Shown piece after piece: positions 2,853 through 53,336 of a stretch of DNA of 64,000 nt. Numbering within the stretch: the stretch's first letter is position 1; every line of letters starts with the position of its first letter. The stretch spans positions 20,135 through 84,134 of the forward strand of contig JAKLIG010000001.1 in the NCBI GenBank assembly GCA_022709735.1, written 5' to 3'. A program made the position numbers and the translations under genes. The notes under the pieces were generated by a model. The model was given only the letters and a program-made list of their open reading frames with translations. It did no database searches and was not told the DNA's origin. This DNA is from Patescibacteria group bacterium. Its GTDB lineage: Bacteria; Patescibacteriota; Minisyncoccia; Moranbacterales; UBA2206.

Positions 2853-3371
2853 ATGGATATAATTTCACACGGCCTTTGGGGCTCGGCGGCGTTTGGAAGA
2901 AAAAATAAAAAAACTTTTTTGATAGCTTTTCTGATTGGATTGGCGCCGGACATGTTTTCTTTCGGCATCCTTTTTGTTTATAGAATTATTCTTCGTCTTG
3001 GATTTTTGCCAGAGCCTAGCATTTCTTTAGCGCCAGCACACTTCCCGGTGCCGATTTTTGTGTATAGTTTATATAATATAACGCATAGTCTGATTATTTT
3101 TGCTCTATTTTTTGGCGCAATTTGGCTGATATTTAAAAAGCCATTTTGGCCGATTTTAGCTTGGGGACTGCATATTTTAGTGGATATTCCAAGCCATTCT
3201 TTTGATTTTTTCCCGACGCCTTTTCTCTGGCCAATTTCTAATTTTAAATTTGATGGAATAGGATGGGGAAATCCAATCATATTTTTTCCGAATGTGATTT
3301 TGCTACTTGCAGTTTATGGTTTTTTATTTTTGAGAAAAAGAAAAAAGAAAAAAATTATTTCTTCAAACTAA
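2853..3371 (+). CDS. Hypothetical membrane protein (4-5 TM)
   Basis: 172-aa hydrophobic ORF with a Lys-rich C-terminus. Confidence 0.55.
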   Translation: MDIISHGLWGSAAFGRKNKKTFLIAFLIGLAPDMFSFGILFVYRIILRLGFLPEPSISLAPAHFPVPIFVYSLYNITHSLIIFALFFGAIWLIFKKPFWPILAWGLHILVDIPSHSFDFFPTPFLWPISNFKFDGIGWGNPIIFFPNVILLLAVYGFLFLRKRKKKKIISSN

Positions 3372-4167
3372 TTTCTTGTCTCGCAATCACTGCGCCGAAA
3401 ACTTTTTTTGCGCCGGCGGATTTCAGAATGCGTCCGGCTTCAAAAAGAGTGGAGCCAGTGGTCGAAATGTCGTCGATTAATAAAACGGTTTTATCTTGTA
3501 AAGCGACTCGAATTTTCGAATTGTCACTCGAATGATTCGAATGTTGATTTTGAAAATCCTTGTTTAAACCGAAAATATTTTTGACATTCTTTTGTCTTTC
3601 CTGATAATTTTTTATTTTCATCTGCGCGGTGGTATATTTTTTTCGGATAAGAAAATTTGAAATGACTGACAAGGGAAAGCCAGGTGTCAAAATTTCAGAA
3701 AGATTTTTAGCTAAAATTTCCGATTGGTTGAAACCGCGCCAGCGAAGGCGCCGAGAGTGAAGGGGAATGGGAATAATAAAATCAGGCAAGGGAAGATTGT
3801 GAAAAATAATCGCTTCGGAGATAATTTTAGCTAAAGGCGTGCCTAAATCAGGAATAAAATTATACTTAAAGCAATGAACAAGGCGGGAAATCCCGCTTTT
3901 TTCATATTTTGCGCTCACAATCAGGGCATCTAGTGGCCCAATTTCATTTTTTCCTAAAAATTTATCCTTGCACGAGGGGCAAATTCGTCCAGCGGGAGAA
4001 ATGGCTTTTTCGCAGTACGGGCAGACCTGAATGGGTAAAATCGAAATTTTTTTGGCGCATTCTTCGCAAATCCAATCGCCATATTTTTGACAAAAAAGAC
4101 AGTGAATAGGAAAGAGGGTATCGAGAATGAAATTTTGTAATTTTTCTAAATAATTAATTATGAACAT
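3355..4167 (-). CDS. comFC: ComF family protein (ComFC-like: double zinc ribbon + phosphoribosyltransferase domain)
   Basis: N-terminal CxxC...CxxC pairs (CLFCQKYGDWICEEC, CPYCEKAISPAGRICPSC). C-terminal PRTase motif VLLIDDISTTGSTL. Divergently adjacent to pilM. Confidence 0.8.
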   Translation of the reverse strand: MFIINYLEKLQNFILDTLFPIHCLFCQKYGDWICEECAKKISILPIQVCPYCEKAISPAGRICPSCKDKFLGKNEIGPLDALIVSAKYEKSGISRLVHCFKYNFIPDLGTPLAKIISEAIIFHNLPLPDFIIPIPLHSRRLRWRGFNQSEILAKNLSEILTPGFPLSVISNFLIRKKYTTAQMKIKNYQERQKNVKNIFGLNKDFQNQHSNHSSDNSKIRVALQDKTVLLIDDISTTGSTLFEAGRILKSAGAKKVFGAVIARQEISLKK

Positions 4168-9942: not shown

Positions 9943-11154
9943 ATGAAATTTAATTTTAAAGCCAAAACGCCTTCGGGCGAATATAAAGAGGGAACTATCA
10001 ATGCTTCTACCAAAGAATTAGCAGTGACAATTCTCCAAAAAAATAATTTATTGCCAGTGAGTGTGCAAGTGGAAGAGCAAGAAAACGATTTTTCCAAAAT
10101 ATTTTTCAAATATTATGACCGAGTAACGGAAAAAGAACTGGTAATTTTTTTCCGACAATTAGCTATCCTCATCGAAGCAAGAGTGCCGATTGTGGTTTCT
10201 CTCTCGGCTATTCTTGAGCAGACTGCTAGTAAATATTTTATAAAAATTATCAGAGAAATGGTAAATGATATTGAAGATGGAATGTCATTTTCTGCTTCAA
10301 TGGAAAAACACAAGGATGTTTTTTCCAATCTCTCTATAAATATAGTTCGTGCCGGAGAAGCTTCGGGAAATCTCAAAAAATCAATTGACTATGTAGCAGA
10401 AAACATTGAAAGAAATTATAATTTAACAAAAAGAGTTCAATCGGCTCTCATTTATCCCGGGTTAGTTTTGCTAGTATTTTTTATAATCGGATTTTTAGTG
10501 ATTTCTTTTGTTCTCCCGAATCTAACGGCGATTATAAAAGAATTAAATGCTGATATCCCATGGTATACGAAAAGCGTTATTGTTGTCGGCGATTTTATGA
10601 AAGTTTATTGGTGGGCGGTGGCTACTATCATAATCGCTTTTGTTGGCGCCATTATGTATTATTTGAATACCGAGGATGGCCGAAAAGAATGGGATCAGAT
10701 AAAAATAAAATTGCCCATTGTCGGACCAATTTTCCGCTATGTCTACATCACCCGTTTTGCGGAAAATCTTGGCGTTCTTCTTTCTGGCGGAATCCCGATA
10801 ATTCGAGCGATTACTATTGTGAGCTCGGTGATAAACAATATTGTTTTTGAGAAAATTTTTCTTGAAGCCGCTGAAGAAGTAAAAAGAGGAGGGAATATGA
10901 GCACAGTGCTTGGAAGAAGTTCTGATATTCCGCCAATGGTAACGCATATGGTGAGAATCGGAGAAGAATCCGGGCAGATTGATTCAGTGCTTGGGCACAT
11001 TGCAAAATTTTATGATCAAGAAACAGAGATGATGGCGAAAAATCTTTCCACGCTTCTTGAGCCGGTGCTGATGATTTTCATTGGAATCGCGGTCGGTTTT
11101 ATGGCTTTTGCAATCCTAATGCCGATCTACAATATCGCAGGACAGATAAAATAG
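9943..11154 (+). CDS. pilC: Type IV pilus inner-membrane platform protein PilC (two T2SSF domains)
   Basis: 403 aa, duplicated GspF domains, 3-4 TM, typical position after pilB/pilT. Confidence 0.9.
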   Translation: MKFNFKAKTPSGEYKEGTINASTKELAVTILQKNNLLPVSVQVEEQENDFSKIFFKYYDRVTEKELVIFFRQLAILIEARVPIVVSLSAILEQTASKYFIKIIREMVNDIEDGMSFSASMEKHKDVFSNLSINIVRAGEASGNLKKSIDYVAENIERNYNLTKRVQSALIYPGLVLLVFFIIGFLVISFVLPNLTAIIKELNADIPWYTKSVIVVGDFMKVYWWAVATIIIAFVGAIMYYLNTEDGRKEWDQIKIKLPIVGPIFRYVYITRFAENLGVLLSGGIPIIRAITIVSSVINNIVFEKIFLEAAEEVKRGGNMSTVLGRSSDIPPMVTHMVRIGEESGQIDSVLGHIAKFYDQETEMMAKNLSTLLEPVLMIFIGIAVGFMAFAILMPIYNIAGQIK

Positions 11155-11155
11155 G

Positions 11156-11212
11156 AAATTTTCAATTTTCAATTCTCAATTTACAATAAATTCTCAATGA
11201 TACAATTCTCAA
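11156..11212. repeat. TTCAAT-type heptamer mini-repeat array (left arm flanking the four-helix-bundle gene)
   Basis: aattttcaattttcaattctcaatttacaat...ttctcaat. Same unit family as at 11558-11632 (inverted), 19105-19225, 52341-52456, 38611-38676, 18346-18436 and 50238-50288. Confidence 0.7.
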
Positions 11213-11553
11213 AGCAATACGATTTAGAAAAAAGAACTGGCGATTTTGGGATAGAAATTATAAAATTCTGCAAAACAGCTCAACAAACAGTTATAACAAA
11301 ACCTATCATAAATCAATTAATCAGATCAGGAACTAGTGTTGGAGCTAATTACTGTGAAGCAAATAACGCTAGTTCTAAAAAAGATTTTAAAAATAAAATT
11401 TTTATCTGTAAAAAGGAATGTCAAGAAACTAAACATTGGTTGCAAATGTCATCAGAATGTTTCCCTGAAAGAAAGCAAGACATAAGAATTCTTTGGAAAG
11501 AATGCCAAGAACTTACGATGATTTTTCAAAAGATAATAAATTCAACGAAATAA
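11197..11553 (+). CDS. Four-helix-bundle protein (family typically encoded in 23S rRNA intervening sequences)
   Basis: 118 aa. Motif SGTSVGANYCEA...KKDF..K..ICKKECQET..WLQ is characteristic of the 23S-IVS four-helix-bundle family. Confidence 0.75.
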   Translation: MIQFSKQYDLEKRTGDFGIEIIKFCKTAQQTVITKPIINQLIRSGTSVGANYCEANNASSKKDFKNKIFICKKECQETKHWLQMSSECFPERKQDIRILWKECQELTMIFQKIINSTK

Positions 11554-11557
11554 TCCA

Positions 11558-11632
11558 GAAATTTTTGAAAATTGAAAATTATTTTATTGGAAATTCATTG
11601 AAAATTGTAAATTGGTGATTGGAAATTTGATC
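11558..11632. repeat. ATTGAAA-type mini-repeat array (right arm, inverted relative to 11156-11212)
   Basis: tttttgaaaattgaaaattatttt...cattgaaaattgtaaattggtgattggaaattt. Confidence 0.7.
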
Positions 11633-11744
11633 CGAGTAATTTGTATTAGTGTTTCGTATTTCGTTAATTTCGTAGTTCGTAAATGATAAAAGGCAGATTT
11701 AAATAGTAAATAAAAATAAAAAACTAGAAAGTCGAGGTGAATTT

Positions 11745-12233
11745 ATGACAAAGAAAAAAACAAAAAAAGCAACTAAGAAGAAAAAAGGCTTTACCCTTAT
11801 CGAACTTTTGATCGTTATCGCCATTATTGGAATTTTAGCATCAATCGTGTTGGTGAGTTTGAATGGCGCAAGAAATAAGGCGAATGCAGCTGCATTTAAG
11901 GCAACCATATCTAGTTTGCAACCAGCTGTTACTTTGTGTTGCGATACATCAACAAATACTCTTAATGATGGAGCCGGTGAAGATGTTTGTAGCTCTACTG
12001 TTGGTGCTTATCTCCCAAGCGCATCGGATTTGAAAGCTGCGACTTCAGTTACTTATGCTCAAGAACATAATTGCTCAACATCTTATCCAGCATTAAGTGT
12101 AACCGTCGCAGGCCATCCGCAAACAGCTTGTAATGCAGAAGTTTGGGTGACACAAACCGGAATTTATAGTGGCGCTGATGGTGCAGATGCAGATACAATT
12201 GGAGATACGCTTGGATTTCCTACGGGATGTTAA
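11745..12233 (+). CDS. Type IV (pseudo)pilin with prepilin N-terminal cleavage/methylation domain, Lys-rich leader
   Basis: Leader MTKKKTKKATKKKKG then the class III signal FTLIELLIVIAIIGILASIVL, with Cys pairs in the C-terminal domain. Confidence 0.8.
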   Translation: MTKKKTKKATKKKKGFTLIELLIVIAIIGILASIVLVSLNGARNKANAAAFKATISSLQPAVTLCCDTSTNTLNDGAGEDVCSSTVGAYLPSASDLKAATSVTYAQEHNCSTSYPALSVTVAGHPQTACNAEVWVTQTGIYSGADGADADTIGDTLGFPTGC

Positions 12234-12334
12234 TCTTTTTTAGCTTGCCAATCTGCATATGCGTTGGCAAGCTTCGTGTGAACTTTAAAATTATTTAGAA
12301 TTCACGCGGAGCTAAAATAAAAAATATAAACTTT

Positions 12335-12742
12335 ATGTCAAATAAAAAAGCTTTTACCCTTATTGAACTTTTAATTATGGTTGCCATTATCGGAATTTTA
12401 GCTGGAGCGATTTTAGTTTCTGTGATAACTGCCAGAAATCACGCGAAAGATAATTCATTTAAGACAACAACCAAAAGCATTCAAACTGGACTGGTTTCTT
12501 GTTGTATTAATCAGCCGCTTACGCGTGCACTTCCAAATAACGCAGCAAATAGAAGAATGTGTAATGGAAGTGATCCGAGTTTAATATATCCAGACTTAGA
12601 TTCAGTGGGTTTAAAAACTGGAGGGAATACATGTTCAGATTTTTATAGTAATGGAAAAACTATTGAGCCTGGAACAAAAAATAAAGGAAATTGTACTAAC
12701 GCAATAATTACTCAAGATAGTATTACCTATACGGATTGTTAA
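12335..12742 (+). CDS. Type IV pilin (prepilin N-terminal methylation domain)
   Basis: MSNKKA-FTLIELLIMVAIIGILAGAIL, 135 aa, C-terminal Cys pairs. Confidence 0.8.
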   Translation: MSNKKAFTLIELLIMVAIIGILAGAILVSVITARNHAKDNSFKTTTKSIQTGLVSCCINQPLTRALPNNAANRRMCNGSDPSLIYPDLDSVGLKTGGNTCSDFYSNGKTIEPGTKNKGNCTNAIITQDSITYTDC

Positions 12743-12761
12743 AATTTTTTATAAAAATCTA

Positions 12762-13562
12762 ATGCTCATTATCTTTTTCATCCTTGGCCTTATTATCGGA
12801 AGTTTTTTGAATGTTTTGGCGTATCGGCTTCACACGGCCGAAGAGTTGTTTTTAGATCGCTCGCATTGCCCGCATTGCAAAAAACAAATCCGCTGGTATG
12901 ACAATATTCCGGTCATTAGTTTTATTCTTCTGAAATCCCGCTGTCGAGACTGCAAAGAAAAAATTTCTTGGCAATATCCAATCGTCGAAATTTTTACCGG
13001 CGTGATTTTCGCGCTGATTAGCTGGAAGTTTTTTGTTTTGACTGACAGCGCTTCTTGGATTTCTACCGCCTATTTTCTATTTGCTTCCAGCGCGCTCATC
13101 ACAATTTTAGTCTACGATTTTCTTTATATGGAAATTCCGGGATCAGTTCTTTGGACGGGAATTTTTGTTTCCATCGCGTTTGTATTGTTTTCCCAAGGCT
13201 CAACCTTGGGAAATCCCAAGGTTGAGCCTTGGGCAGGGGATGTTTATTCCAGTGTTCTGGCGGCTTTTTTAGCTTTTGTTTTTTTCTTTCTGCTTTCAGT
13301 TGGTTCAAAAGAAAAATGGATGGGCATGGGGGATGCCTATCTTGTCATTTTCCTCGGGTTAATTTTGGGTTTTCCGGAAATTCTTCTCGCGCTTTTTTTA
13401 GCCTTCTTTTTTGGGGCAGTTTATGGTATAATAATGCTGGCCCTAAAAAAGAAAAAGATGAAAAGTCAAGTGCCTTTTGCGCCGTTTTTAGTGCTTGGAA
13501 CATTCGTGGCTCTGCTTTTTTACACGCCAATAATAGATTGGTATTTCTCTTTATTTTATTAA
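12762..13562 (+). CDS. pilD: Prepilin peptidase PilD (A24 family leader peptidase/N-methyltransferase)
   Basis: CPHCKKQI...CRDCKEKI zinc tetracysteine between TM1 and TM2. 8 TM. Conserved Asp in GMGDAYLV. Confidence 0.85.
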   Translation: MLIIFFILGLIIGSFLNVLAYRLHTAEELFLDRSHCPHCKKQIRWYDNIPVISFILLKSRCRDCKEKISWQYPIVEIFTGVIFALISWKFFVLTDSASWISTAYFLFASSALITILVYDFLYMEIPGSVLWTGIFVSIAFVLFSQGSTLGNPKVEPWAGDVYSSVLAAFLAFVFFFLLSVGSKEKWMGMGDAYLVIFLGLILGFPEILLALFLAFFFGAVYGIIMLALKKKKMKSQVPFAPFLVLGTFVALLFYTPIIDWYFSLFY

Positions 13563-13577
13563 AAATTTTATCTGTTT

Positions 13578-14060
13578 ATGAAAAAAGGTTTCACCCTACT
13601 TGAGCTTATTATAATAATTGCGATTATCGGCATTATGATGGCGGTTTCTTTGGTTTCTATGAGTTCTTCCAAAAAATATTATGCTCTAAAAACCGCTCAA
13701 GAAGAAGTGACATCGGCGATAAAATTGGCGCAAAGCTATGCGCTTCAAGGAAAAACTACTTCTCAGTGTCCTACAACAGTATATGGATATGGGTTTGAAT
13801 TCACGGGTTCTAATCCCACTGCGGATTATCGAATTTTCTGTTGTCCTGCTAATGACAGTTGTCAAACGCAAGCTACAGTCGAATCCAATTCTTTAAAAAA
13901 CGGAGTTAAGATAGATAATGGTGGATTTGCAAAATCTGTGTATTTTGATATTCCAAATGCTAAGACAAGCAGTCAAACATATTTTTTATTTGTATACAAC
14001 AACGCATTGGAAAAAATAATAAGCATTTCTTCTAGTGGATTAGTTACACAGTTAAATTAG
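13578..14060 (+). CDS. Minor pilin/pseudopilin (prepilin N-terminal domain)
   Basis: MKKGFTLLELIIIIAIIGIMMAV. Confidence 0.75.
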   Translation: MKKGFTLLELIIIIAIIGIMMAVSLVSMSSSKKYYALKTAQEEVTSAIKLAQSYALQGKTTSQCPTTVYGYGFEFTGSNPTADYRIFCCPANDSCQTQATVESNSLKNGVKIDNGGFAKSVYFDIPNAKTSSQTYFLFVYNNALEKIISISSSGLVTQLN

Positions 14061-14071
14061 ATGCATAAAAA

Positions 14072-14653
14072 ATGAAATTAAAAAATAAAAAATATTCCGG
14101 ATTTTCTTTTATCGAAGGCATACTCGCGGTTTTTTTGGTGTCTACGGGAATGGTTGTAGTTTTGAGTCTAATATCCTCAAGCCTCAAAGAATCAATGAAT
14201 AGTCGAGATCAAATCATTGCTTCGCTTTTAGCGCAAGAAGGAACAGAGCTGGTTCGAAATCTGCGGGATAATAATTGGGCGCAAGGTTTGCCGGCATTTA
14301 GCGATCTTTGCGATCTTAGTGGCGGTAGCCCTTCATGCAGTCATGGTAATTATATAATTGATAAGGATAGTTCAGTGATAAAATATTCTGCCAATAAAAA
14401 ACTCAATATAGATAGCAACGGTTATTATGTGACGAGTTCAGGAACGGCTACTAAATTTCAAAGAAGAATTGTAGTTTTATATTATTTAGGAGAATCAAAT
14501 ACTGCTGCTATTTCAGCTATAATAAGAAGTGTAGTTGTTTGGGGACCAAATGGTTTCAACCTCATTAATTTGAATACTCTTAGCTCTACCTGCAATTCCA
14601 CAACAAAATGTGCTTTTGCAGAAACAGTTTTAACTCGGTGGGGAGGAAACTAA
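14072..14653 (+). CDS. Minor pilin-like protein (PilV-like N-terminus)
   Basis: SGFSFIEGILAVFLVSTGMVVV prepilin-like hydrophobic N-terminus. 193 aa. Confidence 0.6.
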   Translation: MKLKNKKYSGFSFIEGILAVFLVSTGMVVVLSLISSSLKESMNSRDQIIASLLAQEGTELVRNLRDNNWAQGLPAFSDLCDLSGGSPSCSHGNYIIDKDSSVIKYSANKKLNIDSNGYYVTSSGTATKFQRRIVVLYYLGESNTAAISAIIRSVVVWGPNGFNLINLNTLSSTCNSTTKCAFAETVLTRWGGN

Positions 14654-14697
14654 AATAAGAAGCAGGAATAAAGAAGTAAGAAGAAAGAAAAAAATAA

Positions 14698-15246
14698 ATG
14701 AAAAGGACAAAACTCAAAAAATTAAATAATAAAAAGCATAAAGGATTTTCTTTGCTGGAAATGCTGATTTCTATTTTTATTTTTTCTCTGATAATCATTA
14801 CTTCTGTTTCGATTTTTGCCGCATCAGCTTCGGCGCGCCAAAAAAGTCGGAAAATCCAGAAAAATATGGAAGATGCCCGGACGGCGCTTGATCTTATGGC
14901 AAAAAATATGCGAATGAGCACCGAGCTTAATACTAGCAATGGAACGGATGAGGACACAACAATCTATATGAACAATAGTTCTCAAGGATGCATTAGCTAT
15001 AAATTCGAAAGTAATAAATTACAGATAGGTTATACAGGTGGTTCTTCAGATTGTAGTAATGCATTATTGTATCCCTCCTATAATGACATAATGGAAAGCG
15101 ATGTTTCCGGAAAATTTTATGTAAAAACGACATTAATAACGGAAGGCTCAAAAAGAGTCGGCCGCGCTACTATTTCTTTAACAGTCGATGGGATAAATTT
15201 AGAAACATCAGTTTCGTTCCGAGATTATAATGAAATAATCCAATAG
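14698..15246 (+). CDS. Minor pilin-like protein (PilW/GspJ-like)
   Basis: KHKGFSLLEMLISIFIFSLIIITSVSIF prepilin motif. Confidence 0.7.
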   Translation: MKRTKLKKLNNKKHKGFSLLEMLISIFIFSLIIITSVSIFAASASARQKSRKIQKNMEDARTALDLMAKNMRMSTELNTSNGTDEDTTIYMNNSSQGCISYKFESNKLQIGYTGGSSDCSNALLYPSYNDIMESDVSGKFYVKTTLITEGSKRVGRATISLTVDGINLETSVSFRDYNEIIQ

Positions 15247-15253
15247 AAATTTT

Positions 15254-16507
15254 ATGCAAAAGAAAAATTCACCCTGTAGAATAAATTTTGTTTACAAAAT
15301 TATCCCGACAAGTCGGGATATTCGACAGGGTAAAAACGGTTCCGTTTTGATTGTTGCCCTGCTTATTTTAGCGATGATGTTGATTTCCGCGCTTAGCTTG
15401 GCTTTGGTGGCAGTCAGGGAAAGAAAAGCTTCTATTGGCGATGTTGATTCTAACAAAGCTTTTCAGAATGCCGATACTGGAATTGAAAGGGTGATGCAAC
15501 TTATAACAAGAGGAAATTTTGATTATATAGGTGGTGGTGGAACGAACAGCTTAATAACAAATATACCGACTTTTCCAAATGGTCAACAGCAGTTTAGATG
15601 TTTGCCAAGTGGTTACATAGAAGATAATAGTAGCAGTGAAAATTTTGTAGTAACGCTGGAAAAAACAAATGTCTCTGGAACCGGCTTGGAACAAATTAAT
15701 TGTAATAATTCAGAACTTGTTTCGAATATTGAAAAAATAAAATCAGTCGGTTCGTCTTCCAGCACAAAAAGAGCGGTGGAGGTGCTGGTGTCAAACAAAA
15801 TTACAAAATTATTGATGCATTTCGATAATAATTTTGATGATGTTTCCTATAGCGATCACAACGCGAGTTCTTCTGGGAGTGTAACTTTTAGCGTTGATAC
15901 TCCGACAGGTGATTTCGGCTCTAACAGCGCCTTGTTTAATTCTGCAGCCGGAGGGAGTTATCTAACGGTTGATTCTAGCGATGATTGGGATTTTCAAAAT
16001 CATGATTTTTCAATTGAAACAAGGATAAAATTTATTCCTCCACCAGCTCCAAATAGCAATCCAAATATAATTAATCATTGGAATGAAGATGGAAACAAAA
16101 GAGGGTTTAAATTATATTATGAACAAAGTTCTGGGAGAATAATTTTTAATTATTCAACTGATGGAAACGGTGGCTCTTCATCTCGTAATCTCTCTAGTGA
16201 TGATGCAAGGATTATTGAAAATGGCAATTGGCACCATGTACTTATTAATAGAAAAGGAGGGAAATTGTATTTCTTTATCGACGGAGAATTAAGAGGGAAT
16301 CCAAATTTTTCAACTAGCAGTGATTTAATCTATTATGATTCTGCCACTTCTCTTAAAATAGGAGCTGTTTTAAACGGCGGAACGCTAGAGGCTAATTCAC
16401 AATTTTTTGGTAACATGGACGAACTGCGCATTACTAAAGGTGTGGCCAGATATACTGAAAATTTTAATACTAAATTATGGACCATTCCGTACGAGTGGAA
16501 TAACTAA
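15254..16507 (+). CDS. PilX-like minor pilin N-terminus fused to a concanavalin A/LamG-like lectin domain (candidate pilus-tip adhesin). True start uncertain.
   Basis: GSVLIVALLILAMMLISALSLALVAV resembles the PilX N-terminal domain. The C-terminus (NGNWHHVLINRKGGKLYFFIDGELRG...DELRITKGVARYT) is LamG-like. A perfect hairpin TATCCCGACAAGTCGGGATA lies inside the annotated 5' end, so translation may begin later. Confidence 0.6.
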   Translation: MQKKNSPCRINFVYKIIPTSRDIRQGKNGSVLIVALLILAMMLISALSLALVAVRERKASIGDVDSNKAFQNADTGIERVMQLITRGNFDYIGGGGTNSLITNIPTFPNGQQQFRCLPSGYIEDNSSSENFVVTLEKTNVSGTGLEQINCNNSELVSNIEKIKSVGSSSSTKRAVEVLVSNKITKLLMHFDNNFDDVSYSDHNASSSGSVTFSVDTPTGDFGSNSALFNSAAGGSYLTVDSSDDWDFQNHDFSIETRIKFIPPPAPNSNPNIINHWNEDGNKRGFKLYYEQSSGRIIFNYSTDGNGGSSSRNLSSDDARIIENGNWHHVLINRKGGKLYFFIDGELRGNPNFSTSSDLIYYDSATSLKIGAVLNGGTLEANSQFFGNMDELRITKGVARYTENFNTKLWTIPYEWNN

Positions 16508-16539
16508 TTTTTTAGAAAAATAATTTTTGAAAAAAGGCG

Positions 16540-16568
16540 CTTTCAAGCGCCTTTTATACTATGGAAAT
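16540..16568 (+). terminator. Rho-independent terminator after the pilX-like gene
   Basis: AAGGCGCTTTCAAGCGCCTT hairpin followed by TTTAT. Confidence 0.55.
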
Positions 16569-16693
16569 CGGGCGGTTTTTGAGGTATAATAGAATTAACG
16601 GCATAATTTAAATATGTCATGCTGAATTTATTTCAGCATCTCTAAAATTTTGGCGAGATCCCGAAACAAGTTTGGGATGACAAACGGCAATAA

Positions 16694-19104
<2,411 letters not shown>

Positions 19105-19107
<3 letters not shown>

Positions 19108-19225
19108 TTTTCAATTTTCAATTTACAATTTTCAATCAATTTTCAATGTTTCAATGAAATAATTTTCAATTGAAAATTGACAATTGGGTATTCATTGTAA
19201 ATCGATTATTGATAATTGAAAAATT
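19105..19225. repeat. Inverted TTCAAT / ATTGAAA mini-repeat hairpin element in the gatC-gatA intergenic region
   Basis: (aattttcaatt)n...ttcaatgaaataattttcaattgaaaattgacaattg: both orientations, forming a long AT-rich hairpin. Confidence 0.7.
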
Positions 19226-20689
19226 TTGATTAGAGAATTACACAATAAATTAATTAATAAAGAAATTACTTCTGTTGAATTAACACAACAGTATTTTGAC
19301 GCAATTTCTAAAAAAGACGGAGACGTCCATGCTTATTTGACCCTAACTAAAGAAGAAGCGCTTGAGCAGGCAAAAAAAGTGGATGAAAAAATTTCGCGTG
19401 GCGAAGAAATCGGAATTATTGAAGGAATTCCTTGCGCGATAAAAGATAATATCTGCATAAAAAATATCAGAACAACGGCGTCTTCAAAAATTTTGGATAA
19501 TTATATTGCGCCGTATGATGCAACGGTAGTTGAAAAAATAAGAGAAGCCGGCGCGGTTATTTTAGGAAAAACTAATCTGGACGAATTTGCGATGGGATCG
19601 TCTACGGAAACTAGCGCTTACGGAGCGACAAAAAATCCATATGACAACGAAAGAGTTCCGGGCGGAACTTCTGGCGGTAGCGCAGCGGCCGTGTCAGCTG
19701 ATATGGCGGTTTGGTCTCTTGGTTCAGATACGGGCGGTTCAATTCGCCAGCCAGCTTCCTTTTGCGGAGTAGTTGGACTAAAACCAACTTATGGCCGAGT
19801 GTCCCGTTATGGTCTTATGGCGATGGCATCAAGTTTTGATCAAATTGGTCCTATGACAAAAACAGTGGAAGATACAGCGATAATTCTGTCCATTATTTCC
19901 GGGAAAGATAATATGGACGCAACTTCTGCGCCGGATTTTGGCAAAAAATACGAAGATTATCTGACGGGTGAAATAAAAGGAATGAAAATTGGAATAGTCA
20001 AAGAATATTTGGAAAGTTTAAATAAGGAAATGAAAACAGAGATGGAAAAAGTAATTGAGCGATATAAAAAACTTGGAGCGGAAATTTGTGAAATTGAATT
20101 GCCCAATGCAAAGTATGCTTTGCCGACATATTATATAATTCAGCCAAGCGAGGTGAGTTCAAATCTTGCCAGGTTTGATGGAATAAAATATGGGATGCGG
20201 GCGGATGATAAAGAAAAAACAAATACGGCGGATTTAGGCGGATTGCCGCGGACGCTTCTGGAAACTTATTTGGATACCAGAAAATATAATTTAGGGGCGG
20301 AAGTGAAAAGAAGAATAATGCTGGGAACTTATGCGCTTTCTTCCGGATATTATGACGCCTATTATCTTCGGGCGCAAAAAGTTCGGACGCTAATTCGGAA
20401 AGATTTTGAAAAAGCATTTCAAAAAGTTGATGTGATTTTGACTCCAACTACGCCAACTCCAGCTTTCAAAATTGGAGAAAAAACCCAAGATCCATTGCAA
20501 ATGTATTTGGAAGATATTTTCACAATCACGGCCAACATCGCTGGCATTCCGGCTGTTTCTGTTCCGTGCGGTATGATAGAATGGGAAGGGAAGCAATTGC
20601 CAGCCGGATTCCAGCTGATGGGCAAATGGTTTGATGAAGAAAATTTGCTTTGCGTGGCACACGCGTTTGAAGTTAATTGTACGGAGTAA
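19226..20689 (+). CDS. gatA: Glutamyl-tRNA(Gln)/Asp-tRNA(Asn) amidotransferase subunit A (amidase signature)
   Basis: GGSSGGSAAAV amidase signature with Ser-cisSer-Lys triad context. 487 aa. Confidence 0.95.
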   Translation: MIRELHNKLINKEITSVELTQQYFDAISKKDGDVHAYLTLTKEEALEQAKKVDEKISRGEEIGIIEGIPCAIKDNICIKNIRTTASSKILDNYIAPYDATVVEKIREAGAVILGKTNLDEFAMGSSTETSAYGATKNPYDNERVPGGTSGGSAAAVSADMAVWSLGSDTGGSIRQPASFCGVVGLKPTYGRVSRYGLMAMASSFDQIGPMTKTVEDTAIILSIISGKDNMDATSAPDFGKKYEDYLTGEIKGMKIGIVKEYLESLNKEMKTEMEKVIERYKKLGAEICEIELPNAKYALPTYYIIQPSEVSSNLARFDGIKYGMRADDKEKTNTADLGGLPRTLLETYLDTRKYNLGAEVKRRIMLGTYALSSGYYDAYYLRAQKVRTLIRKDFEKAFQKVDVILTPTTPTPAFKIGEKTQDPLQMYLEDIFTITANIAGIPAVSVPCGMIEWEGKQLPAGFQLMGKWFDEENLLCVAHAFEVNCTE

Positions 20690-21219: not shown

Positions 21220-21248
21220 TTGACAGTCGATATTTATATAGTTAGAAT
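21220..21248 (+). promoter_or_regulatory. Consensus sigma-70-type promoter (TTGACA-17 bp-TAGAAT) driving the tRNA cluster
   Basis: ttgaca gtcgatatttatatagt tagaat. Identical hexamers and spacing to the rRNA promoter at 38005. Confidence 0.55.
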
Positions 21249-21288
21249 GTTTAGTAGCGTCTGATTTAGACGATATTTTGAAATTATA

Positions 21289-21373
21289 GCGGGGTAGTCC
21301 CGCTATGGCGGGACGGGTGGCTCACCTGCCTGCCGGCAGGCAGGTAATCCCAGGTCGTGGGTTCAAATCAAAA
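21289..21373 (+). pseudogene. Degenerate tRNA-Met-like copy: D-arm replaced by hairpin GTCCCGC-tatg-GCGGGAC, anticodon loop replaced by the perfect 20-bp palindrome, 3' acceptor missing
   Basis: GCGGGGTAG|tcccgctatggcgggac|GGGTGGCTCA|cctgcctgccggcaggcagg|taaTCCCAGGTCGTGGGTTCAAATCa aligns segment by segment to the intact tRNA-Met at 21626-21697. Confidence 0.45.
21325..21344. repeat. Perfect 20-bp palindrome cctgcctgccggcaggcagg (copy 2 of 3)
   Basis: Self-complementary. Identical copy at 49669-49688, imperfect copy at 1935-1954. Confidence 0.85.
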
Positions 21374-21386
21374 AAACATAAATTTT

Positions 21387-21662
21387 ATGTATGTGATATA
21401 CGCTTTATTTTTTAAAAATATAAAAAGAGTGTATGTTGGGATGACTAGTAAATATAATCAAAGAATGGAAGAACATAAAAAAGGCAAAACACGCTCAACG
21501 AAAAATAGAGGAGAATTTATATCAAAAATAATTGAGAAATGCGAAACAAGAAGAGAGGCGAGATTAAGGGAAAAATATTGGAAATCTGGTTGTGGAAAGG
21601 AAGAATTAAAAAAGAAATATTATAGCGGGGTAGAGCAGTCTGGTAGCTCGGGTGGCTCATAA
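21387..21662 (+). CDS. Small GIY-YIG nuclease-domain protein (YhbQ/UPF0213-like). 3' end of the ORF runs into tRNA-Met.
   Basis: MYVIYALFFKNIKRVYVGMTSKYNQRMEEHKKGK...RREARLREKYWKS matches the GIY-(10-11)-YVG...R..EH..G...E pattern. The frame continues 37 nt into the tRNA before a stop, so the true C-terminus is uncertain. Confidence 0.65.
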   Translation: MYVIYALFFKNIKRVYVGMTSKYNQRMEEHKKGKTRSTKNRGEFISKIIEKCETRREARLREKYWKSGCGKEELKKKYYSGVEQSGSSGGS

Positions 21663-21697
21663 CCACCAGGTCGTGGGTTCAAATCCCACCCCCGCAA
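21626..21697 (+). tRNA. tRNA with CAU anticodon (elongator Met or Ile2/lysidine type)
   Basis: GCGGGGTAGAGCAGTCTGGTAGCTCGGGTGGCTCATAACCACCAGGTCGTGGGTTCAAATCCCACCCCCGCA. Confidence 0.85.
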
Positions 21698-21714
21698 CAA
21701 TTTGTCTTCTTAAG

Positions 21715-38004: not shown

Positions 38005-38033
38005 TTGACAAGTTTTCAGGCAATTGCTAGAAT
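38005..38033 (+). promoter_or_regulatory. Consensus promoter TTGACA-17-TAGAAT for the 23S-5S rRNA operon
   Basis: ttgaca agttttcaggcaattgc tagaat, about 450 nt upstream of the mature 23S 5' end. Confidence 0.55.
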
Positions 38034-38457
38034 AATTTCACGTGCTAAATTCATAATTTGTTAAGTCAAATAATGATAATTTCAATACAATTTATAAAAA
38101 AGAAAAGCGGGTGATTCTTTAGTTTTAATTTTGTTTTGAAACCCCGCTCTCAAGCGGTTTTTTGTTTCTTAAAATGGTAAAAAATATTGGCGCTGAAATA
38201 ATTTCTGCAAATAAAATTGTGAAAAATATTTTCCGCGTCAAAGCTGAACTTTGACAACTGAATAGGTCTTAATCGCAAGTTTAATTTTATAATGTTGGCG
38301 GAAATAGAAATTAAATTTGACGATTAGTCACTCAATATTTTAAGCAATAAATATTGAGTTTTGTAGGTAAAATCCCGCCAAGGCGGGATAAAATGCAATA
38401 AGAGAAAATTAAAATAGTTAGCAATATTTATTTAGTAATTGCTAACTGCTAACAACA

Positions 38458-41668
<3,211 letters not shown>

Positions 41669-41817
41669 TTATCTCTCTTGATTCAACTGACAACTCATAA
41701 CTGACAACTTGCAACTTAATTGTTGTTTGTTGAAAGTTGAGAGTTGAAAGTTGATATAGTTAGCAGTTAGAAATTACTAAATTAGCATTTTTTAAAGTTA
41801 GTTAAGAGAGCATTATT

Positions 41818-49504: not shown

Positions 49505-50632
49505 ATGAAAATTGGCATTGATGGCTCGCGAGCCTTCCTAAAACAAAGAACGGGCATTGAAGAATATTCCTATCAGGTAATAAAGCACTTGAGAGAAAAA
49601 TTAAAAACATCTCAAGTTGTTTTGTATTTGCGAAAAAATCAGGAAGTTGATTTTGAATTGCCGGAAAACCTGCCTGCCGGCAGGCAGGGTTGGAAAATCA
49701 AAATAATAAAATGGCCGAGATTTTGGACGCAAATCGGACTATCTTTTGAATTATTTTTTCATCCAGTTGATGTGCTATTCATCCCGGCCCATATATTGCC
49801 ACTATATCATCCGAAGAAATCAATAGTTACTATTCATGGCTTGGAATTTGAGGTTACAAAAGAAGCCTATTCTTTTTGGGAGAAAATATATATGCATCTT
49901 TCGATAAAAAAATCCTGTTTTTGGGCGAGCAAAGTTATCGCGGTTTCAAAAAATACAAAAGAAGACCTGATTGAATTTTATAAAGTACCAGAAAAAAAGA
50001 TCGAGGTGATATATGAAGGAGTATCAACTTGTCATGCCGAACTCGTTTCGGCATCTCATAAGATCCTGAAACAAGTTCAGGATGACAATGCCAAATACCT
50101 ATTATTTATTGGTCGATTAGAAAAACGAAAAAATGTTGAAGGCATAATTGAAGCATATAAAATTTTAAAAGAAAAATATAATATACCTCACAGTTTAGTA
50201 TTGGTTGGTTCGCCTGGATATGGATATGAAAGTATAAAATTGAAAATTGAGAATTGTTTGAAAATTGAAAATTGTAAATTGAAAATTATAGAGCTTGGTT
50301 ATATTGAAGAAGCAGTCAAGTGGCAATTATTGCATGATGCTGATGTATTCTTATTCCCATCATTCTATGAAGGTTTTGGTTTGCCGATTTTGGAAGCGCA
50401 AGTGCAAGGTGTTCCGGTTGTCACTTCCAATGTTTCTTCGCTTCCGGAAATCGGCGGAGACAGCGTGGCCTACTGCACACCCGGAGAACCAATAAGTATC
50501 GCTGATTCGACCTATAAGATTTTAAGCGACGAAAATTTTAGAAATGGTATAATAAAAAAGGGTTATGAAAATGTAAAAAAATTCAGTTGGGATAAGTGTG
50601 CGGAAGAAATCGCTAAATTATTAATAAATTGA
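49505..50632 (+). CDS. Glycosyltransferase family 4 (GT1-fold, RfaG-like) with two in-frame repeat-derived insertions
   Basis: C-terminal GT4 block FLFPSFYEGFGLPILEAQVQGVPVVTS. Contains the 20-bp palindrome (49669-49688, encodes LPAGRQG) and a TTGAAAATTG repeat stretch (50238-50288, encodes KLKIENCLKIENCKLKI). Confidence 0.85.
   Translation: MKIGIDGSRAFLKQRTGIEEYSYQVIKHLREKLKTSQVVLYLRKNQEVDFELPENLPAGRQGWKIKIIKWPRFWTQIGLSFELFFHPVDVLFIPAHILPLYHPKKSIVTIHGLEFEVTKEAYSFWEKIYMHLSIKKSCFWASKVIAVSKNTKEDLIEFYKVPEKKIEVIYEGVSTCHAELVSASHKILKQVQDDNAKYLLFIGRLEKRKNVEGIIEAYKILKEKYNIPHSLVLVGSPGYGYESIKLKIENCLKIENCKLKIIELGYIEEAVKWQLLHDADVFLFPSFYEGFGLPILEAQVQGVPVVTSNVSSLPEIGGDSVAYCTPGEPISIADSTYKILSDENFRNGIIKKGYENVKKFSWDKCAEEIAKLLIN
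49669..49688. repeat. Perfect 20-bp palindrome cctgcctgccggcaggcagg (copy 3), in-frame within the GT4 CDS
   Basis: Identical to 21325-21344. Confidence 0.85.
50238..50288. repeat. ATTGAAA mini-repeat stretch in-frame within the GT4 CDS
   Basis: ttgaaaattgagaattgtttgaaaattgaaaattgtaaattgaaaatt. Confidence 0.65.
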
Positions 50633-51226: not shown

Positions 51227-52351
51227 ATGTTGAAAGATGATATAAAAATAGCTCTTGTGCATGATTTTTTGAACCAATATGGCGGGGCGGAAAAGGTGTT
51301 GGAAGTGCTTGCAGAAATGTTTCCGGAAGCACCTATTTATACGCTTCTTTATGATAGAGAAAAAATGAGGGAGAAGTTTAAAGGGAAAGAAATCAGAACT
51401 TCATTTTTGCAAAGACTGCCAAGATTTTTGAGAAAAAGGTATAAATATTTTTTGCCGTTTTTGCCGACTGCACCGGAATCTTTTGATCTTCGCGATTTTG
51501 ATTTGGTTATTTCTTCTTCCGGCGCTTGGTCAAAAGGAATTGTGACAAGACTTGATACTATCCATATCGCTTATATTCACAGCCCAATGCGATTTGTTTG
51601 GGATTATAATGAAAAATATTTGCGCGATGAGAGGAAAGAAAAATTTGGATTTCTAATTCGGCCAGTGCTTAGTTATTTTCGCCTTTGGGATAAATTGGCT
51701 TCTGATCGGCCGGATTATCTAATTGCGAATTCGAAATATACACAAAGCCGGATTAAAAAATATTATAGAAGAGAGAGCGAAGTTATTTATCCGCCGGTAA
51801 ATCAGGAATCAGGAATCATGAATCATGAATCAGGAAATGATAAAAAATACTTTTTAATTGTCTCAAGACTTTCTGCTTATAAAAAAATAGACAAGGCGAT
51901 TGAAGCGTTCAATAAATTAGAATTGCCGTTGGTAATTGTCGGCACTGGTAAAGAAGAAAAAAGACTCAAAAAAATCGCTGGGAAAACAATTGAATTTTTA
52001 GGCTATCAAAAAGAAGAAGATTTGCCGGAAATTTATAAAAACGCTCGGGCTTTTATTTTCCCCGGCGTAGATGATTTTGGAATTGCGCCAGTTGAAGCGA
52101 TGATGCATGGAATTCCAGTCATTGCGATAAAAGATGGGGGAGCGGTGGAAATTGTTGAAGAAAATAGAACCGGAGAATTTTTTGAGAGCGCAATGCCCGA
52201 AGTTATTGCAGATGCGGTTCGAAGATTTTGCGAGAATGAAAAAAAATATGAAAGGGAATATATAATTAAAAGTGTTGAGCGGTTTGGAAAGGAAAGATTT
52301 ATTAGAGAGTTCGAAGATTATATTAAAAAGGTTATGTATAATTTTCAATAA
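51227..52351 (+). CDS. Glycosyltransferase family 4
   Basis: GT4 C-terminal block FIFPGVDDFGIAPVEAMMHGIPVIA. In-frame tandem gaatca[gt] repeats at 51800-51840 (NQESGIMNHESGN). Confidence 0.85.
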   Translation: MLKDDIKIALVHDFLNQYGGAEKVLEVLAEMFPEAPIYTLLYDREKMREKFKGKEIRTSFLQRLPRFLRKRYKYFLPFLPTAPESFDLRDFDLVISSSGAWSKGIVTRLDTIHIAYIHSPMRFVWDYNEKYLRDERKEKFGFLIRPVLSYFRLWDKLASDRPDYLIANSKYTQSRIKKYYRRESEVIYPPVNQESGIMNHESGNDKKYFLIVSRLSAYKKIDKAIEAFNKLELPLVIVGTGKEEKRLKKIAGKTIEFLGYQKEEDLPEIYKNARAFIFPGVDDFGIAPVEAMMHGIPVIAIKDGGAVEIVEENRTGEFFESAMPEVIADAVRRFCENEKKYEREYIIKSVERFGKERFIREFEDYIKKVMYNFQ

Positions 52352-52456
52352 TCAATGATCAATTTTCAATGAATTTTCAATTATATAATTTTCAAATTAA
52401 AAAATTGAAAATTGTAAATTGATTGTAAATTGAAAATTGTAAATTGAAAATTTAAG
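52341..52456. repeat. Inverted TTCAAT / ATTGAAA mini-repeat hairpin element between GT4 and holB
   Basis: caatgatcaattttcaatgaattttcaatt...aaaaaattgaaaattgtaaattgattgtaaattgaaaattgtaaattgaaaattt. Confidence 0.7.
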
Positions 52457-52457
52457 A

Positions 52458-53336
52458 ATGCAAATTATTGGTCACAATAAAATAATAAAATATTTAGATA
52501 AAGCTATCGCTAAGGATATGATATCCCAGGCTTATCTTTTTTCTGGCCCGGCACATTTAGGGAAATTTACCCTTGCGTTGGAATTTGCCAAAAAAATAAC
52601 TGGCGGGCTGGATCGCAAAATCAACCCAGATATAATAATAATTTCTCCCGAAACGGAAGAAAAAAACGGGAATGTGAAAAAGAAAGATATAAAAATAGAA
52701 AAAATTAGAGAATTAGAACACGAGCTGAGTCTTACCGCTTATTTTGGAAAACATAAAGTCGTGATAATTGATGAGGCACAGCATCTAACGATTTCTTCCC
52801 AAAATGCACTGCTTAAGACCTTGGAAGAACCGCCTCAAAAAGCCGTTATAATCTTGATTGCAGAAAATCCGAATAAAATTATTTCAACAATCAAATCCAG
52901 ATGCGTTATTAAAAAATTCAGTTTAGTCAAGAAATCTGAAATAGATGCAATAATTTCTTCAAAAAATAACGCAGAGGATATAGGATTTTTGTCGCTTAGC
53001 CGTCCGGGATTGGCTATTAATCTTTCTAAAGACAGGGGAGAGTTGGAAAAACGCCAAAAAGCCCGGGAAGATTTGAAAAAAATGTTTGAGATGAATTTGA
53101 GTGAAAAGTTTTCTTTTTGTGAAGAGCTAAGCAAAAATGTTCCGGAAATGATTGAAAAATTGAATTTCTGGCTGGCGCTACTTCGAAAAAATATTTTAGA
53201 AAATTGCAAAATTTTCAATCTTGATCAAAAAAAATCGCTGGCGCTTATTTTGAATATTGAAAAAAGTCTCAAAATATTAAACGAAACTAATTCCAACTCG
53301 AAATTGGTGATGGAAAATTTAGCGTTAGAAATATAA
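52458..53336 (+). CDS. holB: DNA polymerase III delta' subunit-like (HolB, AAA+ clamp-loader)
   Basis: AYLFSGPAHLGKFTLALEFAK Walker A-like P-loop and VVIIDEAQHLT DExx box. 292 aa. Confidence 0.75.
   Translation: MQIIGHNKIIKYLDKAIAKDMISQAYLFSGPAHLGKFTLALEFAKKITGGLDRKINPDIIIISPETEEKNGNVKKKDIKIEKIRELEHELSLTAYFGKHKVVIIDEAQHLTISSQNALLKTLEEPPQKAVIILIAENPNKIISTIKSRCVIKKFSLVKKSEIDAIISSKNNAEDIGFLSLSRPGLAINLSKDRGELEKRQKAREDLKKMFEMNLSEKFSFCEELSKNVPEMIEKLNFWLALLRKNILENCKIFNLDQKKSLALILNIEKSLKILNETNSNSKLVMENLALEI

Follow-up and report, generated by a model that had tools for sequence, protein, structure and literature searches.

A 64-kb window of the genome of a Candidatus Moranbacteria member (Patescibacteria/Candidate Phyla Radiation, CPR) contains look-alike hairpins with ATCCCG/CGGGAT stems, which lie upstream of the ligA gene, in the leader of the 23S rRNA gene and in a pilX-like open reading frame (ORF). 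These hairpins are probably copies of small palindromic repeat elements that are scattered in this genome, and not a dedicated leader signal, since they are dispersed and also occur in frame inside protein-coding genes. The window, to whose 64 kb all copy counts given for it are confined, has a GC content of 36.5%. Its gene content includes ligA, gatCA, and gyrB, a type IV pilus operon, a tRNA cluster, and a 23S-5S operon that lacks an upstream 16S gene, and its RodA and GT4 proteins bear the label Candidatus Moranbacteria in the sources they come from.

A preliminary description of this DNA had grouped four hairpins into a single family of 5′ leaders. All four sequences are indeed present, at 15302-15319 (ATCCCGA-CAAG-TCGGGAT), 16658-16678 (ATCCCGAAACAAGTTTGGGAT), 38372-38389 (ATCCCGC-CAAG-GCGGGAT), and 21297-21314 (GTCCCGC-TATG-GCGGGAC). 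The pattern ATCCCG..CAAG..GGGAT has three matches in the window, all on the + strand, and none in the 100 dinucleotide shuffles that served as a chance control. While three ATCCCG/CGGGAT hairpins do exceed chance, the hairpin at 21297 is not a member, and the remaining three do not form one leader-specific family. Moreover, the promoter described as lying just upstream of each hairpin has a counterpart in promoter-like sites before 16658 (16562-16590, 10/12) and 21297 (21220-21248, 11/12), but there is none before 15301, and the only strong site before 38372 (38005-38033) is ~340 nt upstream and is followed by a terminator-like hairpin. As for termination, no hairpin in the window has the T-run on the + strand expected of an intrinsic terminator; only the − strand of the 15301 hairpin has a terminator-like score, at a place where no gene of that strand ends. 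No Rfam 15 family was found at the hairpin sites at gathering thresholds and none overlapped the hairpins at E ≤ 1 in focused scans, and a literature search with sequence or peptide strings returned unrelated primer matches only.

Head-to-head REP dimers upstream of ligA and within a GT4 gene

The 16658 hairpin is one half of a head-to-head pair of TGTC-tagged repetitive extragenic palindromic (REP) units spanning 16613-16684. A near-identical second pair, overlooked in the preliminary description, lies at 50028-50089, in frame in the ORF of a GT4 glycosyltransferase (49505-50632). The hairpins at 16658 and 50063 are each preceded by an inverted sister hairpin, ATGCYGAA-N5-TTCRGCAT (16619-16639 and 50034-50054 respectively), which gives both pairs the layout TTGTCAT…ATCTC-spacer-GAGAT…ATGACAA with mutually inverted units. 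A covariance model, R1, built from 108 REP units of the 16658 type found outside the window, identified exactly four units in the window (E 1.5e-10 to 5.9e-8), arranged as two inverted pairs 33 kb apart. The stems of these units (ATGCTGAA, ATGCCGAA, ATCCCGAA, and ATCCTGAA) each close a 5-nt loop, and the TGTC tag abuts all four of them, at 16615-16618 and 50030-50033 and, as GACA, at 16679-16682 and 50084-50087.

In the 5′ region of ligA, the left half of the dimer, unit A1 (16613..16642, − strand), is composed of the TGTC tag, a stem formed by ATGCTGAA and TTCAGCAT, the 5-nt loop and a CTC tail (R1 48.3 bits, E = 3.8e-10). The right half, unit B1 (16655..16684, + strand), contains the 16658 hairpin, reads GAG-ATCCCGAA-ACAAG-TTTGGGAT-GACAAA (39.7 bits, E = 5.9e-8), and ends 9 nt before the ligA ATG at 16694. 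This hairpin had been drawn with a 9-nt arm and a bulge, but its best fold is an 8-bp stem with one G·U pair and an ACAAG loop. When the ligA pair is folded as RNA, its two hairpins stay separate (z = −3.6). The pair is located before the start of ligA and after the terminator (16532-16555) of the preceding gene. The DNA upstream of ligA has no such pair in L003 and L010, whose LigA proteins are 73-74% identical (L-numbers designate loci from relatives or other genomes, P-numbers protein orthologs), or in seven further relatives' loci (six distinct sequences), and bears unrelated palindromes instead.

Within the GT4 gene, unit A2 (50028..50057, − strand), TGTC-ATGCCGAA-CTCGT-TTCGGCAT-CTC, encodes the peptide CHAELVSAS (45.9 bits, E = 1.6e-9), while unit B2 (50060..50089, + strand), AAG-ATCCTGAA-ACAAG-TTCAGGAT-GACAAT, encodes ILKQVQDDN (49.9 bits, E = 1.5e-10), its hairpin proper occupying 50063-50083. 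This pair falls exactly in the interdomain linker between two Rossmann-fold domains (Pfam 17-175 and 190-355), a linker that proved hypervariable when 32 orthologs were aligned. Apart from the window, P0001 is the only one of them to have the CHAELVSASHKILKQVQDD pair. P0105 and P0090 carry a different REP-derived peptide at the same linker (CHSGLDPES…ILKQVQDD), and 28 of the 32 orthologs are without REP-derived peptides. Other in-frame palindromic insertions are visible in GT4 family alignments, namely LPAGRQG, a 35-residue PARNAS…HSDAGGP block, ETQQCCVSTG, and CHSERSEES. A comparison with GT4 paralogs was dropped because it is uninformative on insertion status, for which orthologs are required. 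Across 245 kb of the closest relatives, R1 found nothing significant except the GT4 pair of L280; one weak match occurred in L276 (18.5 bits, E = 0.043). In L280, the GT4 gene is directly followed by a restriction-modification cassette (HinfI-like, with two methyltransferases) and a tyrosine integrase (11134-16034), which are absent from the window.

The REP unit outside the window

The same unit, generalized as ATSCYGAA-N5-TTCRGSAT-GACA (pattern ATSCYGAANNNNNTTCRGSATGACA), has 64 matches in 49 stretches of viral contigs, a number that exceeds chance by our own estimate for ~36 specified bits, made without a shuffle control of the collection scans. It also occurs in at least 120 stretches of species-representative genomes. 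Among the matches listed are CPR groups, Ignavibacteria, Treponema, Nitrospirota, Melainabacteria, Bacteroidota, Elusimicrobiota, Alpha- and Gammaproteobacteria including a Rickettsia, and one metagenome-assembled genome (MAG) of Nanoarchaeota. Identical 25-mers of the unit are shared by CPR bacteria with many classical phyla, with phage contigs, and with a DPANN archaeal MAG, and the same REP units lie in non-coding DNA of L037 and L078.

We surveyed 196 distinct units of the 16658 type, taken from the viral and genome collections with a search pattern that tolerated mismatch at the variable stem positions. Of the two variable stem positions, one is complementary in 196/196 units and the other in 194/196, with T·G in the remaining two. 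This covariation bears out the earlier claim that pairing is under selection, but it would place that selection at the level of the repeat family and not leader by leader. The unspecified "AG" upstream of the stem is A in 82% and G in 96% of the 196 units, and the loop is ACAAG in 42% of them, which explains the CAAG loop seen initially. Outside the window, 93 of 209 units have a GTCAY within 90 nt upstream. According to crude ORF calls, 99 of the units elsewhere are flanked by unidirectional, 23 by convergent, and 10 by divergent ORFs, and single units show a mild orientation bias relative to these ORFs (35:18, p = 0.027). Since this bias is only mild, an obligatory RNA-level role is not indicated, while a stabilizing or processing side-effect of REP units is possible. 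The hairpin pattern ATCCCGNCAAGNCGGGAT taken alone has 25 matches in viral contigs, 21 of which have complementary N positions. Because these matches lie in heterogeneous contexts (some in T-run terminators, some in a conserved coding segment, and three in a single phage), the short hairpin by itself is not diagnostic.

Hairpin in the 23S leader

The hairpin at 38372..38389 (+ strand) is untagged and lies in the 23S leader, where 76 nt separate it from the 23S 5′ end. It precedes the leader/trailer processing stem, in which leader-trailer pairing runs from ~38432 onward when read by eye. We compared this leader with four orthologs recovered via RodA synteny: L277 and L278, the closest relatives sampled (RodA 82-83% identical to that of the window), L279 (70%), and L282 (72%). 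The loci L276, L281, and L283 do not extend to this leader and are not part of the comparison. The leader is well conserved among these relatives, including an upstream hairpin with compensatory changes and the trailer-pairing stretch. The 38372 hairpin itself is a clean 18-nt indel at …gtaggtaaa^aaaatgcaataa… and is absent in L277 and L278, while at the same point L279 has ATCCCGT-ttctaag-ACGGGGT and L282 has ATCCCGTCACTC-30 nt-GAGTGACGGGAT. An ATCCCG/CGGGAT-based hairpin with a variable tip is thus found at this site in three of five lineages.

The hairpins at 15301 and 38372 share 16 of 18 bases where ~5e-6 matches are expected per window, an identity that, on this composition-based estimate, cannot be due to chance. 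Both have stems of 7-8 bp and 4-nt loops, with no abutting TGTC tag. TGTC-tagged REPs with a ATCCCGCA stem are present in L043 and L077, which ties the 38372 stem to the same repeat class. A boxA/boxB antitermination reading of the 23S-leader hairpin was tentatively rejected, as no E. coli-type boxA consensus could be seen by eye after the hairpin.

Other features were observed around the 23S gene. In L277, L278, L279, and L282, other GC-rich palindromes lie just before the mature 23S end, each of L277 (2400-2790), L278 (5300-5330), and L279 (3110-3150) having its own, with two copies of CCCGCCTCGCGTCGAC…GTCGAGGCGGG in the leader of L277; the window has none there. Palindromes seem to insert preferentially at this site just before the mature 23S 5′ end. 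The segment 38005-38157 of the window, which precedes the 23S leader, contains a strong promoter-like TTGACA-17-TAGAAT with TG and, ~110 nt on, the terminator-like hairpin. The stretch AAAAGCGGGTGA(A/T)…GCGGTTTTTT is kept in all four relatives and has no Rfam match; the segment could be a small RNA or an attenuator-like leader. The 23S gene of the window (38465-41678), which is not linked to a 16S gene, is 3214 nt long against 2925 nt for the model and hence contains insertions, and LAGLIDADG ORFs are found inside the 23S genes of relatives (L279, L280, and L282).

A composite palindromic element in the pilX-like ORF

The pilX-like ORF is called at 15254-16507, 7 nt past the stop of the previous gene. 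While the 15301 hairpin had been assigned to a 5′ leader, it sits in codons 17-22 of this ORF with no promoter-like site upstream, and the PilX_N domain starts downstream of it, at residue 29. The hairpin is part of a composite palindromic element of ~61 nt (15271..15331, + strand), a Y-shaped structure in which an outer stem (ACCCTGTAGAATA/TATTCGACAGGGT) encloses two internal hairpins. Hairpin 1 (15284-15301, + strand) is AATTTTG-TTTA-CAAAATT, and hairpin 2, the 15301 hairpin itself (15301..15320, + strand), is TATCCCGA-CAAG-TCGGGATA, with an R1 score of 8.1 bits (E = 7). A GACA near this hairpin is displaced by 3-4 nt from the stem and does not abut it.

This element corresponds to a 60-nt in-frame insertion of 20 codons (15272-15331), which are missing from the L010 ortholog. 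The latter begins MWEKKSLNKKNKGSVL, whereas the window reads MQKKNS[PCRINFVYKIIPTSRDIRQG]KNGSVL, where the bracketed part is the insertion. A second copy of the element lies in L010 (3544-3628) upstream of the major pilin gene, at a site that is empty in the window, and a third in L282 (3480-3570), where it adjoins the 23S 5′ end. The three copies are thus in three related genomes, all at non-orthologous sites. Their outer stem varies by compensatory changes (G-C to A-T; A·G, G-C, or T-A) and their internal hairpins are variable, with fold z-scores of −4.9 for the window copy and −7.2 for the L010 copy. In viral contigs, the ACCCT inverted-repeat pattern has 16 matches, which we attribute to chance because the 3′ repeat is missing in all of them, and the element was not found there. 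The 15301 hairpin is an internal module of this element, which is bounded by inverted repeats and resembles miniature inverted-repeat transposable elements (MITEs).

A tRNA-Met pseudo-copy and other palindromes

The hairpin at 21297 shares only the CCCGC/GCGGG stem with the other three and is not matched by R1. It lies in a truncated, degenerate copy of tRNA-Met(CAT) (21286..21370, + strand), which was recognized by alignment to the tRNA-Met at 21624-21698 and is called by neither ARAGORN nor Rfam. In this pseudo-copy, the 21297-21314 hairpin replaces the D arm, a palindrome, CCTGCCTGCCGGCAGGCAGG (21325-21344), sits in the anticodon loop, and the 3′ acceptor strand is missing. The 21297 hairpin is another recurrent palindrome and is not of the ATCCCG set. 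The pseudo-copy is followed by a small GIY-YIG-like ORF (region 21441-21662) and then by the intact tRNA-Met, an order that suggests an insertion of the homing-endonuclease type in which part of the target was duplicated. L027 (15540-16020) has a tRNA-Met cluster of a similar kind, with tRNA fragments and an identical 18-mer hairpin, GTCCCGCTATGGCGGGAC.

The palindrome CCTGCCTGCCGGCAGGCAGG (20 nt, peptide LPAGRQ) represents a second palindromic repeat family, with copies inserted close to tRNA-Ser, in the tRNA pseudo-copy, and, read in frame, in the GT4 gene. Its second copy (49669..49688, no strand assigned) is the in-frame 7-residue insertion LPAGRQG in the GT4 ORF, which among the 32 orthologs is present only in the window and P0003, the 21-nt stretch being absent from L280 DNA. 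A third copy at 1935-1954 has 2 mismatches. The palindrome also occurs in CPR and non-CPR loci (L049 21356, L188 7087, L214 406, and the 23S leader of L282).

AT-rich AATTTTC/GAAAATT arrays, often forming inverted blocks, are found in intergenic DNA at 11157-11213, 11565-11614, 18344-18434, 19105-19229, 38610-38647, 50218-50292, and 52339-52471, as well as in L075 (18440-18510) and L282 (~3250-3440). They flank an ORF of the 23S_rRNA_IVP family (11197-11553) and also occur inside the annotated 23S gene, and a GAAAATT-type repeat is read in frame in the GT4 ORF as KLKIENCLKIENCKLKI, which is common to several orthologs. The prepilin peptidase (PilD) gene contains, in frame, a perfect palindrome with a 19-bp stem and nested hairpins (CCCAAGGCTCAACCTTGGG-AAAT-CCCAAGGTTGAGCCTTGGG, 13189-13233). 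We rejected it as a clean insertion because L010 has another sequence in this variable loop and 6 residues more.

Comparison with known repeat systems

As set out in the published text on CGTC-tagged REPs (Di Nocera, De Gregorio & Rocco 2013, BMC Genomics 14:522; PMC3733652), these repeats have a CGTC tag, with TGTC or CCTC as variants, an 8-9-bp stem that opens with two complementary A-T positions, a 4-5-nt loop, and a 3-nt tail. The prevailing arrangement is the head-to-head dimer, with the tags outside, which in CGTC-2 is usually a heterodimer; copies in frame within genes have been described, and there is no dedicated transposase. The pairs in the window are like CGTC-2 in their TGTC tag, 8-bp stem starting with A-T, T-A, 5-nt loop, tail length of 3 nt, head-to-head heterodimeric arrangement, in-frame intragenic copies, and lack of an associated transposase, and the encoded peptide CHAELVSAS compares with the CGTC-2 peptide RHSELVSGS from Sulfurovum in the supplement to that paper. 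On this text description and the one supplementary peptide, the ligA and GT4 pairs fit the published CGTC-2 definition. They differ from it, as published, in their tail (CTC/CTN in window-type units against the consensus CCA), in their host (CPR/Patescibacteria are outside the five phyla listed there), and in what looks like a very low copy number (four units per 64 kb here and, in the nearest relatives, next to none over 245 kb, against dispersed multi-copy CGTC-2). In the literature searched, which included the RepRanger paper, we found no report of REPs in Patescibacteria. CGTC-type REPs are here documented in Moranbacteria, and seen in other Patescibacteria, the kind of element itself being already known.

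Two Rickettsia palindromic elements (RPEs) are equated with CGTC REPs in the text of that publication (RPE-4 with CGTC-4 and RPE-6 with CGTC-1; PMC3733652). Like RPEs, the repeats described here are inserted in frame at tolerant sites (the GT4 linker, the N-terminal tail of the pilX-like protein, and LPAGRQG), where they are free of stops and missing from orthologs (the GT4 pair is in 2/32 orthologs and LPAGRQG in 2/32, and the pilX insertion is absent from L010). They are unlike RPEs in their host, families, and sizes (100-150 nt for RPE-1), and the decorated proteins are here known from genes alone. With REPINs and REP-associated tyrosine transposases (RAYTs) (Bertels & Rainey 2011; Nunvar et al. 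2010), there is likeness in the inverted REP pairs with a short spacer, the dispersal, and the conservation of the hairpin at family level, but the tag is TGTC instead of GTAG/GTGG and no Y1/HUH transposase was found in the window.

The Neisseria repeat dRS3 (CGTC-1; ATTCCC-N8-GGGAAT) is approached by sister units of the form tgtcATTCCCGC-NNNN-GCGGGAATc in the CPR loci L019, L037, L043, L049, and L078, and by the CCCGN-NAAG-NCGGG core and 4-nt loop of the 38372 and 15301 hairpins. However, the 7-bp ATCCCGN stem of the window is one bp shorter, has neither tag nor tail, and is unclustered. Finally, the 61-nt element at 15271-15331 shares with MITEs its 13-nt terminal inverted repeats, the lack of coding capacity of its own, and its presence at three non-orthologous sites. 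It is much shorter than MITEs, which are typically 70-300 bp, no target-site duplication was identified, and its three copies have no known parent insertion sequence.

Discussion

We propose that short GC-rich palindromic elements have spread through this Moranbacteria genome and its relatives and would be tolerated where they do little harm, that is, in 5′ untranslated regions, the rRNA leader, tRNA-cluster spacers, and in-frame protein linkers or termini. The 16658 and 16619 hairpins form a TGTC-tagged head-to-head heterodimer of the CGTC-2 type. The 38372 hairpin, by this account, stands alone without a tag on the same stem base and has been gained or lost in the course of 23S leader evolution. 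The "compensatory" differences between stems may then reflect recognition of the hairpin, as single-stranded DNA or RNA, and its copying or retention at family level, with no locus-specific evolution of each leader's own structure. Propagation may proceed as has been proposed for REPs mobilized by HUH/Y1 transposases. This single-stranded DNA route is only an analogy, because CGTC REPs have no known enzyme and a transposase domain was not detected among the window ORFs scanned. The elements may also act at the RNA level, for example by stabilizing transcripts at their 5′ or 3′ end.

Several points weigh against such a repeat origin. A Pfam scan of ~38 ORFs in the window revealed no Y1_Tnp or other transposase domain, so that mobility is inferred from presence/absence patterns only. 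When the GT4 DNA of the window is compared with that of L280, 60 of 62 positions are identical inside the pair, against 74% in the rest of the gene (P = 1.8e-6). The pair would thus be constrained or homogenized at the nucleotide level, and this difference (97% against 74%) argues for constraint or homogenization beyond neutral junk. The 15301 and 38372 hairpins are weaker members of the family, being untagged and scoring with R1 at or below noise, and their link to the REP class rests on the 16/18 shared bases, the ATCCCGCA-stem REPs, and their indel behavior. Moreover, a repeat explains the 23S-leader site no better than would a leader structure that is ancestral and functional but can be dispensed with.

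In the preliminary description, the hairpins were places where RNA is processed or a leader-binding protein attaches, and compensatory evolution maintained them at each locus separately, which we now consider unlikely. It is true that the hairpins at 16658, 38372, and 21297 are preceded by promoter-like sites and followed by a start codon or mature RNA, that the G·U pair of the 16658 hairpin is consistent with pairing on the transcribed strand, and that L279 and L282 have a 23S-leader hairpin that keeps the ATCCCG/CGGGAT base, varies at the tip, and shows a single C-G to T-A change as well as one U·G pair. However, the same hairpins are found in frame inside coding sequence, in the GT4 linker and at the N terminus of the pilX-like protein. 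Retention at orthologous leaders fails for ligA and pilX, so that two of the three true members have stems that relatives do not conserve, and at the 23S leader it holds in part, the hairpin of three lineages being cleanly missing in the two closest relatives. The 15301 element is at three non-orthologous places in three genomes, and the REP unit extends across many phyla, at intergenic positions of every flank type. The hairpins should consequently not be annotated as a regulatory leader motif.

There is a small probability for another explanation, in which the REP unit is more than selfish DNA and serves as the recognition hairpin of a widely shared nucleic-acid-binding or single-strand DNA-processing factor, under nucleotide-level purifying selection in reduced CPR genomes even within the GT4 gene, and the 23S-leader hairpin is a lineage-conserved rRNA maturation signal. 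It is rather improbable that REP units are retained for their action on RNA, as stabilizing stem-loops or partial terminators between genes, with their spread being secondary. Such roles have been reported in the REP literature, and the predominance of unidirectional and convergent flanking ORFs over divergent ones, the mild sense-strand bias of single units, the nucleotide-level conservation of the GT4 pair, and the position of the ligA pair between a terminator and a start codon all go in this direction. Against this, no copy in the window has a U-tract on the + strand, each pair contains both orientations, the orientation bias is weak and comes from crude ORF calls, and a location in a protein interdomain linker is hard to square with termination. 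That the intragenic similarity is a conserved peptide motif (…HAELVSASHKILKQVQDD…) and not a DNA or RNA element is effectively refuted: the copies are in frame without stops and the peptide is common to the ortholog P0001, but non-coding DNA contains these nucleotide units too (before ligA and in L037 and L078), the two units of a pair are read in opposite orientations, most orthologs have no REP-derived peptide in the linker, the 62-nt pair is conserved at synonymous positions as well, and stem positions covary as base pairs.

The favored reading of the hairpins as scattered repeats marks a load of REP-type and MITE-like repeats in a CPR genome. Such repeats inflate ORFs, as in the start region of the pilX-like gene, make "junk" peptides in real proteins such as the GT4 glycosyltransferase, and can mislead motif discovery. 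The constancy of the REP unit across phyla is extreme, with no mobilizing enzyme known, and together with the strong conservation of the unit within GT4 it presents the REP field with a puzzle.

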